Source of the DNA: Escherichia coli
Lineage (GTDB): Bacteria; Pseudomonadota; Gammaproteobacteria; Enterobacterales; Enterobacteriaceae
DNA length: 64,000 nucleotides
NCBI RefSeq assembly: GCF_003334405.1
Contig: NZ_QOWM01000018.1
Direction: 5' to 3' (one strand)
The first letter of the stretch is position 1. The number at the start of each line of letters is the position of its first letter. Shown piece by piece: positions 45,268 through 52,991 of the stretch. The notes beneath the pieces are model-generated. The model searched no databases and was not told the DNA's origin. It was given only the letters and a program-made list of their open reading frames with translations. The position numbers and the translations under genes were made by a program.

Positions 45268-45318
45268 GGTATCTCCCTTGCTGCCGCCCCGTCTCCGGCG
45301 GGGCGGTGTGGTTGTTCA

Positions 45319-47277
45319 TCAGGCGGCATCAGCCAGGTTAGCGGTGTGTTCAGTGGCATCCGTCTGTGGACGTGGCGCACACATCCAGCCAGGCACCCAG
45401 CGGTTGTCTTTCATATGGAACTCTGCATGTTCAGCCGCATCGCCTTTCTTCATTTTCTCCGCGTCCCGTGCGGCACCGGACAGTCCGGCCTCATTCAGGG
45501 CTGCGATAATCTGCGGCTTTTTCAGGTGTCCGAAGAAGTTTGCTTTTGTCGGCTGCCACCAGTCGCGCATGTGAAAACCGATGGCGCTCTCCAGCGTGTC
45601 CAGCGGGCTGCGTGACGTGTGACCACACTCACGGGTCTGGACACCGTTAAGGCTGCACGCGGTGCAGAAACTGAGCAGGGATAACAGCACCTCCTGACTG
45701 AGTGACAGGAACGTCGTCATGTCCCGTGACCATCCCTCCGGTAACAGGGCCGCAAGACGGGCTTTTTCTGCCATCATCGACAGGAATGCGGCACCTTCCT
45801 TCCCTGACGGCGCATCGCTGGTCAGCGAATAATGTTTACATTCCAGGCTGATTTGTGCTGGTTTACTGTACGCTCCGCTGCCAAACACATTCAGGCAGAG
45901 CGTCCACGCCAGCAGTGCCAGAGATTTGTCCGGTTGCTGCATCAGTGCCGCCTGGACTGCCAGCGTGCGTTCGGAAGACATTTTCGTCAGCAGTGGCAGA
46001 CTGATTTCCTCCACTGATGCTTTCTCCTGCACCTGTTCCGTGCGGTCAGCGTCGTCAGCAGCGTCATCTTCACTGCGCAACTGCACACCACGCTGGACAC
46101 ACACATTACCGTAACGCCAGGACACCACCACACCGCTTCCGGCACGCATCTCCGGCGTCCACGCCCTGACCTTCGCCATGCAGCGCATCAGCTTCATTTC
46201 TGCTTCCAGCAGGTCGGATTCCTCACACTGGTTTTCCAGCGCGTCGTAACGCGTCATCAGTTCGTTCAGGCGTTCTTCTTCCGCCTCCGTCAGCACCGCT
46301 TCCGGCTCCGGCAGACAGCGGTATGTTCCGGCATCCTCACGGCACTCACCGACAGGCTCCATGCGCCCGGCGCACCATTCCCAGCCTTCGGCTTCCCGAA
46401 GGTGTTCAGCGACAGCCTGGAGTTTTTCCAGCAGGGCAGCATCGAGTGCCACGCAGTCCACATAGCCACCCTCGTCGTCGCTGAACAAATCGGTGCGCAG
46501 TTCATCTGGCGAGAAGGCATCAGCCCCCACGAAGCGGAATTTACTGTTCCCTGCCACCGCCACTTCACTTTCGGTCACCAGACGACGAATGGTCTGCACT
46601 TCCGGTTTACCGCCCCATCCCGACTGACAGGCGGCTTCAAACACCTGCACCTGACGCGCGGTGTCGTTCTCCAGCGCCAGCGCTTGACAGTGTTCGGTGG
46701 TGATGCGGTCTTCTGCCAGCGCATCGAGGATGACAGGCGCAAGGTCTGCCAGTTTCAGCATTCGCTGAACGTGGCGGGGTGAATAGCCCAGCAGGTCGCC
46801 AATCTGCGCAGATGTTTTGCCTTCCTGCGCCAATGCGCGGAATCCGGCAATCTGTTCGGCAGGGTGCATATCCCGACGATGACCGTTCTCGGTCATCGAT
46901 GCGGCAGTCGCCAGTTCCTGCGGGATGACCTTCACACGGACAGGCCAGTCAGCCGGAAGGATGTTGCGCTCTGCCAGCATGTTGAGTGCAGCCAGTCGGC
47001 GACCACCTGCGGCGACACCGTAACGGTCACCAGGCAGGGTATGCACGACCAGATTCTGCAACAGGCCAACGCCCTTAATGGACTCAGCCAGTTCGCTGAC
47101 GGACTCCACAGAATACGGCACCGTGCGCACATTCAGCGGTGATTTAATCAGTGAGGCCAGCGGCACGCTCACTTCCTCCGTCTGCGCCAGCAGGGCAGAC
47201 AGGGCAGTTTCCTGCGTTTTTGCAGATTTACGGCTTGCTTTGCGGGTGGTTTCTGGTTCACACTTCGTTACAGGCAT
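45319..47277 (-). CDS. ParB-like nuclease-domain protein of leading region
   Basis: 652 aa from ATG 47277; ParB N-domain motif VAAGGRRLAALNMLAE. Confidence 0.65.
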   Translation of the reverse strand: MPVTKCEPETTRKASRKSAKTQETALSALLAQTEEVSVPLASLIKSPLNVRTVPYSVESVSELAESIKGVGLLQNLVVHTLPGDRYGVAAGGRRLAALNMLAERNILPADWPVRVKVIPQELATAASMTENGHRRDMHPAEQIAGFRALAQEGKTSAQIGDLLGYSPRHVQRMLKLADLAPVILDALAEDRITTEHCQALALENDTARQVQVFEAACQSGWGGKPEVQTIRRLVTESEVAVAGNSKFRFVGADAFSPDELRTDLFSDDEGGYVDCVALDAALLEKLQAVAEHLREAEGWEWCAGRMEPVGECREDAGTYRCLPEPEAVLTEAEEERLNELMTRYDALENQCEESDLLEAEMKLMRCMAKVRAWTPEMRAGSGVVVSWRYGNVCVQRGVQLRSEDDAADDADRTEQVQEKASVEEISLPLLTKMSSERTLAVQAALMQQPDKSLALLAWTLCLNVFGSGAYSKPAQISLECKHYSLTSDAPSGKEGAAFLSMMAEKARLAALLPEGWSRDMTTFLSLSQEVLLSLLSFCTACSLNGVQTRECGHTSRSPLDTLESAIGFHMRDWWQPTKANFFGHLKKPQIIAALNEAGLSGAARDAEKMKKGDAAEHAEFHMKDNRWVPGWMCAPRPQTDATEHTANLADAA

Positions 47278-47335
47278 AATCATCCCCTTATAATTGCTTA
47301 TGTCCTGCCGGACGTTCGCGCGTCCGGCACCTCTC

Positions 47336-47575
47336 TTACTTAAGAATCCCGAAATCACGGATGGCATGGTTCATCCAGTACCCGGCACCGTCCTCAAAAT
47401 TCCAGGTACGCCAGACCATTGTTCCGTTATTACGGACAACCAGGCGAAAATGTTCTCCGTGGTCATCCTCGATAAAGACGTTCCGGTACTGTGCGGCAAC
47501 GGCTTCGGCATGTTTGCGGGTAAAAGGACCGTCAGGCAGTCCCTGAAGTATTCTGAAATATTCGCTCATTCTCAT
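47336..47575 (-). CDS. hypothetical small leading-region protein
   Basis: 79 aa, between ssb and ParB-like gene. Confidence 0.55.
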
Positions 47576-47626
47576 ATCTCCGGTGATGCCCCGCGCAGGG
47601 CGGGGCGGTTATCACAGTCAGGCCAG

Positions 47627-51256: not shown

Positions 51257-51705
51257 CAGTTGTTTTCGTGTGTGTTGTTTTTCAGCAGGCTGCGGGCCTG
51301 ATTAACCACCGCCTGACGACGGGTGACGCATTCCGGGACGGTGAGTCCGTTATCACGGGCGGCCCATTCACGCTTCCACAATGCCTGTTCAGCGGTCTGA
51401 ATCAGGGACGCCAGCAGTTCAACAGGGACGGACACCTGGCGGTTTTCGCTCACGTTGCTGATAATCTCCATCGCAGCGGCGGAAGAAATACCGGACTCAA
51501 TCCGCTGGTCTTCCGGGATGTCCTCCAGGCGCGCCAGGACAGTCCTGATTTCATGATCGGACAGGGAAATATCCATTCCGTCAGCGAGGGCCTGAATCTC
51601 TTCCGGGGACCAGACAACCAGCATCAGTGGCGTGTCTGCCGGATACTTTGCTGCCAGCTCCCGGCAGAGTATTTCGCATGTTCCGTACATACTCTCTCCC
51701 CTCAA
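51256..51705 (-). CDS. hypothetical leading-region protein (paralog of 49117-49539)
   Basis: 149 aa, ATGA overlap with upstream gene. Confidence 0.6.
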
Positions 51706-51923
51706 TCTTTGAAGCAGGAATCCAGTTCCAGAATTTCGGTATATGCCTCCATCAGGAGGCGGTTTGCGCGAAACAACGTCTGACGCACCAGACGTTCCGG
51801 CAGGGTGTCAGCATTAAAGCTGTACCGCCGCTCCATCTCATTCATGGTTGTACGCAGGTCGCACATGGCATTGGCCACCTCCGCCACTTCGGCGCGAAGT
51901 TTTTCATGTCCGGCATAGTTCAT
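51702..51923 (-). CDS. hypothetical small protein
   Basis: 73 aa, adjacent to methyltransferase stop. Confidence 0.45.
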   Translation of the reverse strand: MNYAGHEKLRAEVAEVANAMCDLRTTMNEMERRYSFNADTLPERLVRQTLFRANRLLMEAYTEILELDSCFKD

Positions 51924-52607
51924 TTACGCAGCCTCCGGCATAAACCAGTCATCATTTGCGGCCCCCTGCTGCATGGCCCGCTGTACGGCAGCCAGACGTT
52001 GCTGTCCGGCACGGTGATACTGCTCAAGCAGCTCGATACCGATATACCGGCGTCCGGACTGAAGGGCGGCCACGCAGGTTGAGCCGCTGCCTGCAAACGG
52101 GTCCAGCACAATCGCGTTCGGATGTGTGAAGCTCTCAATCAGTGGTTGCAGGCTGGTAACAGGCTTTTCCGTCGGGTGATGACGATTGCCTGAATATTTC
52201 CAGCCCAGCACGTCGGGTAATGGCTTCTGAGGCAGCGCCGGACGGCCTTTTGCCAGAACGTAGGCGCATTCGTGGCGATAACCCACATATGCGGCCTTCG
52301 ATGTGTAGTTTTTGGTGAAGACCAGGTGCCCAACCACACTGAATCCCGCATTTTTCCAGGCGGCCATAAAGCGATCGACGCGGTTCCAGCCGTAGAAGCT
52401 GACCATCAGCGCATCTTTTTTGAGTACGCGATACATTTCATTACAGGCTGGTTGCAGCCATTCATCGGTTTTATCGCCGGCGATGGTACGCCCCTGTCGG
52501 TCACGAAAACCGACGAGGTATGGCGGGTCAGTCAGTATGAAATCAATGCCGTTATCAGGAATACGCGCCATAACATCAATGCAGTTACCGAGGACAAAAC
52601 GGGACAT
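51924..52607 (-). CDS. orphan DNA methyltransferase (N6-adenine/N4-cytosine class, beta-type motif order)
   Basis: motif IV DPPY followed by motif I LDPFAGSGST; AAGGAG RBS; no adjacent restriction gene. Confidence 0.8.
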   Translation of the reverse strand: MSRFVLGNCIDVMARIPDNGIDFILTDPPYLVGFRDRQGRTIAGDKTDEWLQPACNEMYRVLKKDALMVSFYGWNRVDRFMAAWKNAGFSVVGHLVFTKNYTSKAAYVGYRHECAYVLAKGRPALPQKPLPDVLGWKYSGNRHHPTEKPVTSLQPLIESFTHPNAIVLDPFAGSGSTCVAALQSGRRYIGIELLEQYHRAGQQRLAAVQRAMQQGAANDDWFMPEAA

Positions 52608-52991
52608 AACAACACTCCTTCTTTCTCAGAGGGCACCGGGAGGGCACCCCTGTGGTGCCCGTTCCCCGCTGCCTGTGGGCTGTTCACCGCGTCCGGTAAC
52701 GGGTCAGGCCGACCGTGGAATATCGCAGCCGTCGTCTTTTTGACGGCGAGAATATGCCGCGAAAGCGGCTTGAAGGGCGTTCATCAGAAAAGGGCGACAG
52801 GCTGGCGTACACTGTCACCGACGCCAGCCGGGAGCGGTAAAAGCGCCCGTCCCGTGCCCGCCGGACGCGGGACACTGACCACAGGCAGCGTTTATGCCGC
52901 GCCGCATCAGCCGGCGCAGTAAACAGAGGAGCACGGCGACATCCTTTGTCGGAAAAGAAACGGGCGGTTGCCCGCCCGTCTCCGTCATACT

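Follow-up and report, generated by a model that had tools for sequence, protein, structure and literature searches.

Stable hairpins that lack a U-tract and are located inside operons are known to protect RNA, as described for the repetitive extragenic palindromic (REP) sequences between malE and malF of malEFG, for papBA, for the puf operon and for the trimmed ends of Rho-terminated RNAs. In the early region of phage T7, RNase III sites are found between genes 0.3, 0.7, 1, 1.1 and 1.3 and leave stable 3′ hairpins. Here we analyzed small GC-rich stem-loops between the genes of a plasmid leading region, located in a 64,000-nucleotide (nt) stretch of Escherichia coli DNA (contig NZ_QOWM01000018.1 of assembly GCF_003334405.1), hereafter called the window. 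The window represents a conjugative plasmid of the IncI1/IncI-gamma-K type, the leading region of which spans from the relaxase genes nikB and nikA (~34.4-37.5 kb, minus strand) to ~54 kb and carries every leading gene on the minus strand. Based on this arrangement and the established polarity of conjugative transfer, the plus strand enters the recipient 5′-first and serves as template for the leading genes. We lean towards the view that the small palindromes are read-through intercistronic RNA stem-loops, which by analogy may shield or insulate the individual cistrons of the short-lived early mRNAs.

With the known intercistronic 3′-protective stem-loops the elements share a stable fold without U-tract just past a stop codon inside an operon, read-through and selection on the RNA fold. 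Unlike in the REP-type cases, nearly every non-overlapping junction of the operon set carries a hairpin, there is no shared consensus, and the operons, for whose hairpins we infer the function, are transcribed from single-stranded DNA (ssDNA) promoters for just a few minutes following conjugative entry. The REP consensus of E. coli had no match with three or fewer mismatches anywhere in the window, and a scan of the whole window at Rfam gathering thresholds yielded no match for the small hairpins. The likeness to the T7 early region lies in the first-entering DNA, in the polycistronic transcript made by the host polymerase and including an anti-restriction gene, and in a structured element at each junction. 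The T7 sites, however, are irregular duplexes of ~20 bp or longer that are cut by RNase III, whereas the stems described here comprise 7-12 bp and are thus too short for this enzyme, which needs ~20 bp or more of double-stranded RNA.

Exactly one perfect GC-rich stem-loop was present in each of the five short spacers (46-58 nt) between minus-strand genes, and all five are assigned to the minus strand. Between the ParB-like gene and psiB (54-nt spacer, 45265-45318), the stem-loop CCGCCCCG-CCGGAGA-CGGGGCGG occupies positions 45284-45306 (8 bp, loop of 7 nt) with a free energy (dG) of −20.2 kcal/mol. The spacer between DUF905 and the ParB-like gene (58 nt, 47278-47335) carries TGCCGGACG-CGCGAA-CGTCCGGCA at 47306-47329 (9 bp, loop of 6 nt; −19.2 kcal/mol), and that between ssb and DUF905 (51 nt, 47576-47626) carries GCCCCGC-CCTGC-GCGGGGC at 47588-47606 (7 bp, loop of 5 nt; −20.0 kcal/mol). 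Between the KlcA-like gene and DUF1380 (46 nt, 49540-49585), GGGGCGGC-AAT-GCCGCCCC was found at 49558-49576 (8 bp, loop of 3 nt; −18.4 kcal/mol). A further one, located at 51224-51252 between the second DUF1380 gene and orf256 (50 nt, 51206-51255), combines TATCGCCGCC and GGCGGCGATA in a 10-bp stem with a loop of 9 nt (−25.3 kcal/mol, z = −3.8). These dG values represent folds of the whole spacers, which are dominated by the hairpin (−18 to −25 kcal/mol). The stems of 7-10 bp contain 6-9 GC pairs, the total lengths amount to 19-29 nt, and the 3′ end of the stem is 12-28 nt away from the next start codon in all five cases.

A first-pass annotation of this DNA had listed palindromes near minus-strand starts at 45280-45305, 47309-47330, 47585-47605, 49560-49580 and 51232-51255, and all five proved to be real within a few bases. 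Its further suggestion that they are not random GC runs was borne out as well. When the dinucleotides of each spacer were shuffled 1000 times, just 0-1.1% of the shuffles contained a perfect stem of at least 7 bp, and in the 9.85 kb between 44114 and 53963, which have a GC content of 58%, 17 perfect GC hairpins were observed versus 1.25 ± 1.1 in shuffles. No hairpin was found at the overlapping or abutting junctions psiB/psiA, DUF1380/orf63 and methylase/orf73.

For comparison we used F, ten other annotated IncF plasmids, pESBL and 80 metagenomic loci. Additional IncF loci were derived from Salmonella, Klebsiella, Raoultella, Enterobacter and Cedecea, and the PsiB proteins of the IncF set are 50-85% identical to that of the window. 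A contig search with PsiB yielded 4 loci; the metagenome search with the PsiB alignment yielded the 80 loci, which are all 96-99% identical and were used for polymorphism. Generality was assessed within IncI and IncF plasmids, as tblastn with KlcA, aimed at other Inc groups, was saturated with close relatives, and hairpins were counted using family-curated sets of post-stop hairpins together with annotated gene tables. The 12 annotated IncI/IncF leading regions contain 94 spacers with a length of 25-120 nt. Of these, 65 carry a perfect stem that spans 7 bp or more and includes no fewer than 5 GC pairs, and G·U-containing stems occur in many of the others. The leading-region hairpins have stems of 7-12 bp, a median dG of −19.4 kcal/mol and a median z of −3.1. 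In transfer and maintenance operons, on the other hand, only 3 of 20 spacers contained a hairpin (1/11 in F-type operons and 2/9 in the IncI transfer operons of the window itself), resulting in an odds ratio of 12.7 (Fisher p = 1.8e-5). Sequence identity of the hairpins ranged from 0.87 to 0.99, which equals or exceeds that of the flanking coding sequence, and hairpins are kept even in plasmids with a PsiB only 50-57% identical.

Where the stems differ between relatives, pairing is retained. In the hairpin between DUF905 and the ParB-like gene, three pairs were changed on both sides; none of 500 shuffles reached the observed covariation score, and controls with a slid register collapsed to 20-41% paired. 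The hairpin downstream of ssb occurs in a compensated form, GCCCCAC/GTGGGGC, and in a U·G form, and between the KlcA-like gene and DUF1380 a series of C-G, U·G and U-A was observed at one pair (GGGGCGGC/GCCGCCCC, GGGGCGGT/GCCGCCCC and GGGGCGGT/ACCGCCCC). Variants of the hairpin between DUF1380 and orf256 carry TTCG, TGCG or TCCG tetraloops, and variant stems such as GCCGCCCC-TTCG-GGGGCGGC are present upstream of psiB in relatives.

Concerning their position, the hairpins had been placed by the first-pass annotation just before the ribosome-binding site. They do precede the next start codon, but a location just after the stop codon describes them better, since the distance to the stop codon amounts to 8.4 ± 4.1 nt compared to 26.7 ± 18 nt for the distance to the next start. 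The hairpin is also retained with klcA whether the downstream gene is DUF1380 or ardA, and both observations indicate that it is the stop codon that fixes where the hairpin is placed. Downstream of the hairpin, the Shine-Dalgarno sequence of the next gene is unpaired.

With intrinsic terminators the elements have in common the GC-rich stem, the short loop and the post-stop position. In contrast to terminators, none of the five hairpins is followed by a U-tract (at least 4-5 U within ~8 nt); the sequences following them are CAGCAAGG, ATCACCGG, GGACATAA, TGTAAAGG and CAGGGAGA, and for the 65 hairpins the median was 1 T in the 8 nt 3′ of the stem. Read-through is indicated by published data. In F, expression of YfjA-sfGFP in transconjugants is lost upon deletion of Frpo2 upstream of ssb (PMC9849209); F possesses the same hairpin between ssb and yfjA, so that transcription passes this hairpin. 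All five hairpins are present in pESBL, for which induced leading genes comprising six operons, about 25 genes and six mapped start sites have been reported (PMC12672017). The five hairpins are therefore not terminators, as they lack a U-tract and are located inside co-transcribed operons.

These data also bear on whether the hairpins might be transcriptional attenuators or pause sites, possibly of low efficiency, which halt or slow down part of the polymerases at each junction and so grade expression down the operon in the order ssb > yfjA > parB-like > psiB. GC-rich hairpins do form on the RNA-sense strand in the nascent RNA, the canonical terminators of these regions are built on comparable stems, and one may speculate that termination on a single-stranded template does not require a U-tract. 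Nevertheless, the defining U-tract is absent, yfjA is expressed only if the promoter upstream of ssb is present, and psiB, which is separated from its promoter by three hairpins, is among the most strongly induced genes of pESBL (PMC12672017). We thus regard attenuation, which the first-pass annotation had also considered, as unlikely.

Palindromes fold on both strands, whereas wobble pairs and loop motifs tell one strand from the other. To make use of this, a palindrome finder penalising G·T and A·C equally was applied to 114 unique post-stop hairpins. Among internal non-Watson-Crick events, 20 distinct G·T/T·G in mRNA sense were found versus 2 A·C/C·A (binomial p = 1.2e-4), compared to a ratio of 1.14 expected from base composition. 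Each sense-strand G·U corresponds to a C·A mismatch in the transferred strand (T-strand), and some families carry two G·U in a 10-bp stem. Tetraloops of the UNCG or GNRA type were also biased, with 25 in sense versus 4 in antisense among 55 four-base loops (p = 1e-4). Both p-values are indicative, as some of the sequences behind the wobble and tetraloop counts are related to each other, which makes the counts less than fully independent. The two excesses agree and argue for selection of the fold in RNA. A selection at the RNA level, not primarily on the transferred ssDNA, is thus favoured by these sequence signatures, and from the three roles suggested earlier (stabilisers, attenuators or ssDNA structural elements) it is an RNA-level stabiliser or insulator that gains support.

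The converse proposal would be that the hairpins act as ssDNA elements folding in the incoming T-strand (the plus strand of the window), where they would slow down synthesis of the complementary strand, keep SSB away or direct priming and thereby prolong the single-stranded phase. Most stems are perfect and would fold as DNA too, and the F leading region is converted to double-stranded DNA later than its distance predicts, which is still observed after deletion of the ssp2 roadblock (bioRxiv 10.64898/2026.01.09.698686). The wobble and loop asymmetries are opposed to this proposal, and a DNA roadblock offers no rationale for the tight spacing to the stop codon; we consider it improbable.

Less convincing still is the idea that the palindromes mark cassette or module boundaries, being loosely attC-like remnants of, or substrates for, a recombination that shuffles leading genes. 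It would fit the mosaic gene content, the hairpin that remains next to klcA although a different gene may follow, and the similar GCCGCCCC/GGGGCGGC stems that recur at different junctions. However, where each of the flanks reaches an identity of 85% or more, the segment following the hairpin is also 90-96% identical, providing no general breakpoint signal, and segment-wise divergence did not support the idea that the hairpin is followed by a hypervariable segment or a breakpoint. The hairpins of 19-29 nt are devoid of attC anatomy, and the compensatory changes and RNA-type loops point to selection on folding, which makes such boundaries highly improbable. An identity with integron attC sites was rejected, as these are imperfect palindromes of 57-141 nt with R″/L″-L′/R′ cores and extrahelical bases and not perfect 19-29-nt stems; no integron integrase was found among the annotations of the colinear leading-region relatives. 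That GC-rich palindromes without function arose by chance in a region of 58% GC has a negligible probability given their excess over shuffles, their enrichment in short spacers, their conservation in distant plasmids and their covariation.

Coming back to intercistronic RNA stem-loops that protect or insulate cistrons, the following course of events can be proposed. Host RNA polymerase would synthesize polycistronic early mRNAs from the leading-region ssDNA promoters, and the hairpins would fold in these transcripts. Lacking a U-tract, they would be passed by the polymerase, and the operon would stay co-transcribed. The hairpins may then block 3′→5′ exonucleases and, after cleavage in the linker, may serve as 5′ caps. 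During the brief single-stranded phase the arriving complementary-strand synthesis may cut transcripts short, and such truncated, cleaved or Rho-terminated transcripts would be trimmed only to the nearest hairpin, thereby keeping complete upstream cistrons. In addition, the hairpin would probably keep the downstream ribosome-binding site structurally apart from the upstream sequence or 5′-protected. The outcome would be a maximal protein yield from a short burst of transcription, which ends when the leading region turns double-stranded.

Several points weigh against this interpretation. The structures, their conservation, covariation, sense specificity and absence of U-tracts were computed, and the role as stabiliser or insulator is derived by analogy. 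The spacers of 34 nt between theta and hyp105 contain no hairpin, and consequently a hairpin is not obligatory. In a Cedecea plasmid (L006, 7890-7930) the hairpin upstream of the ParB-like gene is preceded by a Frpo-like element and followed by the start codon of that gene, without ssb or DUF905 upstream; such a 5′ untranslated region (UTR) hairpin without an upstream cistron fits a role in front of the ribosome-binding site better than a 3′ cap. With respect to the strand tests, their counts are in part related, and the ratio of C/T to A/G polymorphism at third codon positions was 1.5, so that a sense-strand C→T bias could feed part of the G·U excess; against this 1.5:1 background, 20 of 22 wobble events correspond to p ~0.002 (hand calculation). 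Finally, a perfect stem can form just as well in the DNA strand that is transferred, and a dual role in RNA and T-strand is possible.

A more far-reaching version would regard the hairpins as a specific adaptation to a single-stranded template chased by the replisome, as partners of the ssDNA promoters and as a general design rule of 'first-in' operons. Owing to a strong post-stop hairpin, transcripts would then be trimmed to whole cistrons when replication overtakes the polymerase, avoiding non-stop mRNAs, and the hairpin or its DNA mirror image might help to release the nascent RNA from its ssDNA template shortly before each ribosome-binding site. We consider this version distinctly unlikely.

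The leading region's early expression from ssDNA promoters is an active topic, covering anti-restriction, inhibition of the SOS response and other anti-defence genes, and it affects the establishment of resistance plasmids in new hosts. In the matched passages of open-access papers on leading regions, small intercistronic hairpins are not described, older subscription papers on the F and ColIb-P9 sequences being outside the search. The corresponding passages treat only large promoter hairpins (PMC9849209, PMC11541004, PMC12672017, bioRxiv 10.1101/2025.04.03.647016 and bioRxiv 10.64898/2026.01.09.698686), and one of these studies, in the part matched, reports palindrome density by position without a trend. 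The small hairpins represent a new and well-conserved case of a known kind of element, whereas the long spacers of the region are already known. If the hairpins set mRNA lifetime or the yield per cistron during the few single-stranded minutes, they would add a second, post-transcriptional layer to the early programme. In that case they would be easy to address by mutagenesis in F or pESBL, for which assays already exist. The annotation of this region also becomes cleaner, since its true terminators are now told apart from ssDNA promoters and from intercistronic hairpins that lack a U-tract.

True terminators are present at operon ends of the same regions, where hairpins carry T-runs; a similar type of stem gains a U-tract where a gene ends an operon. 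Downstream of orf256, the end of the operon led by the methylase gene, the terminator scan identified GGCGGG-GTAAATT-CCCGCC followed by TTTTTCC (50403-50421, minus strand). Downstream of the DUF1281 gene a hairpin at 52960-52979 within 52951-52979 (minus strand) consists of ACGGGCGG-GCAA-CCGCCCGT followed by TTCTTTTCC. Both hairpins represent ordinary intrinsic terminators at operon ends. The latter one forms the 5′ edge of the spacer at 52608-52991, and the first-pass annotation, by listing this spacer with the small palindromes, had merged separate kinds of elements. Downstream of orf63, which ends the klcA operon, a post-stop stem-loop without clear U-tract is found at 48902-48921 (minus strand); its homologues show longer stems with conserved G·U pairs. 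The pattern of U-less post-stop hairpins reaches past the range considered originally into the oriT-proximal leading operon, where stem-loops outside that range follow a 145-aa open reading frame (ORF) (41365-41391, minus strand, U-less and also present in pESBL) and an 89-aa ORF in front of an Rpn-family gene (41001-41028, minus strand, U-less and containing G·U pairs). The Rpn-family gene itself is followed by a canonical terminator with U-tract at 40021-40045.

The three long spacers belong to a different class. Frpo/ssi promoters of classes 1-3, active on ssDNA, have been described (Masai and Arai 1997 as cited in PMC12672017; PMC9849209; PMC12672017), and the pESBL homologues of the three spacers were assigned to classes 3, 2 and 1, with start sites mapped by 5′ RACE (PMC12672017). 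The published pESBL map likewise agrees with the plus strand as the transferred strand (PMC12672017), and the region 44114-53963 is colinear with pESBL-EA11 at 94.8% identity. The spacer at 52608-52991 (384 nt), located directly upstream of the methylase operon, is 96.1% identical over all 384 nt to the colinear spacer upstream of the methylase gene in pESBL-EA11, the pESBL identities given here being taken over the full spacer length. Including the terminator, it folds as plus-strand ssDNA into a long imperfect hairpin with −109 kcal/mol (z = −7.0). It is thus indeed structured as noted previously, but its grouping with the small hairpins does not hold, as it belongs to the known type of ssDNA promoter: 52608-52950 corresponds to a class 3 promoter (M.EcoGIX type), which folds in the plus strand and would drive the minus-strand methylase operon. 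Positions 50012-50402, which also fold in the plus strand, correspond to a class 2 promoter (klcA/ardA type); the complete 417-nt spacer including the terminator (50012-50428) likewise folds as DNA into a long imperfect hairpin (z = −5.8) and shares 94.2% identity with the spacer upstream of klcA in pESBL. Upstream of ssb, the plus-strand class 1 promoter region (ssi/Frpo type) extends over 48158-48901 within a 771-nt spacer (48158-48928), which includes the orf63 hairpin and is 97.9% identical to its pESBL counterpart. By homology, the three spacers are already-known ssDNA promoters, with 94-98% identity to pESBL. Conserved C·T bubbles were seen in their sub-hairpins. The small hairpins, unlike Frpo/ssi promoters, are only 19-29 nt long, have no −35/−10 boxes and no room for hexamers, and show signatures that point to RNA.

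Another class 2 promoter copy is located upstream of ardA (43059-43520), and partial copies of class 1 sub-hairpins are found near 42100-42550 and 39280. Identical sub-hairpins are shared by 39282-39301, 42137-42156 and 48488-48505, by 42214-42230 and 48564-48580, and by 43370-43388 and 50324-50342, and these recurrences mark putative repeated copies of class 1 and class 2 ssDNA promoters along the leading region. Several coding sequences, annotated in relatives as 'hypothetical protein' or 'DUF1472', overlie such spacers (52684-53028 in the window, a 114-aa ORF; L001 13674-13985; L002 8964-9434; L101 4394-4705); they are probably spurious calls on structured noncoding DNA. In relatives, a 2343-bp group II intron (GTGCG...AC, with ltrA) is inserted at the position equivalent to 48732|48733 (plus strand) of the window, as in L099 8731-11073, whereas the window itself is free of the intron. 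It is carried by an IncK2/Z plasmid of E. coli as well as by several plasmids of Klebsiella, and the intron is oriented as the transferred strand and lies inside the class 1 promoter upstream of ssb. A targeting of the small hairpins by the intron was rejected, as the insertion site in relatives is the class 1 ssDNA promoter.

The genes bordering these elements, all on the minus strand, are arranged as follows in the direction of transcription. The DUF1281 gene (52992-53963) precedes the class 3 promoter spacer, which is followed by the DNA methylase gene (51924-52607), the abutting orf73 (51702-51923), the DUF1380 gene of the methylase operon (51256-51689) and orf256, encoding 258 amino acids (50429-51205). 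Beyond the class 2 promoter spacer, the klcA operon consists of the KlcA/ArdB-like antirestriction gene (49586-50011), its DUF1380 gene (49117-49539) and orf63, encoding 63 amino acids and overlapping DUF1380 by 4 nt (48929-49120). Downstream of the class 1 promoter region, ssb (47627-48157) is followed by DUF905 (79 aa, yfjA-like; 47336-47575), the ParB-like gene (45319-47277), psiB (44830-45264) and psiA, which overlaps psiB by 4 nt (44114-44833).

Outside the leading region, Rfam matches were obtained for a sok antitoxin RNA (29516-29673, minus strand, 134 bits) and for an AgrB antisense RNA (28804-28891, plus strand, 58 bits). At one end of the window, positions 1-38 and 863-900 represent two 38-nt palindromes with perfect 15-bp stems, each being the reverse complement of the other, as would fit recombination repeats of a shufflon.

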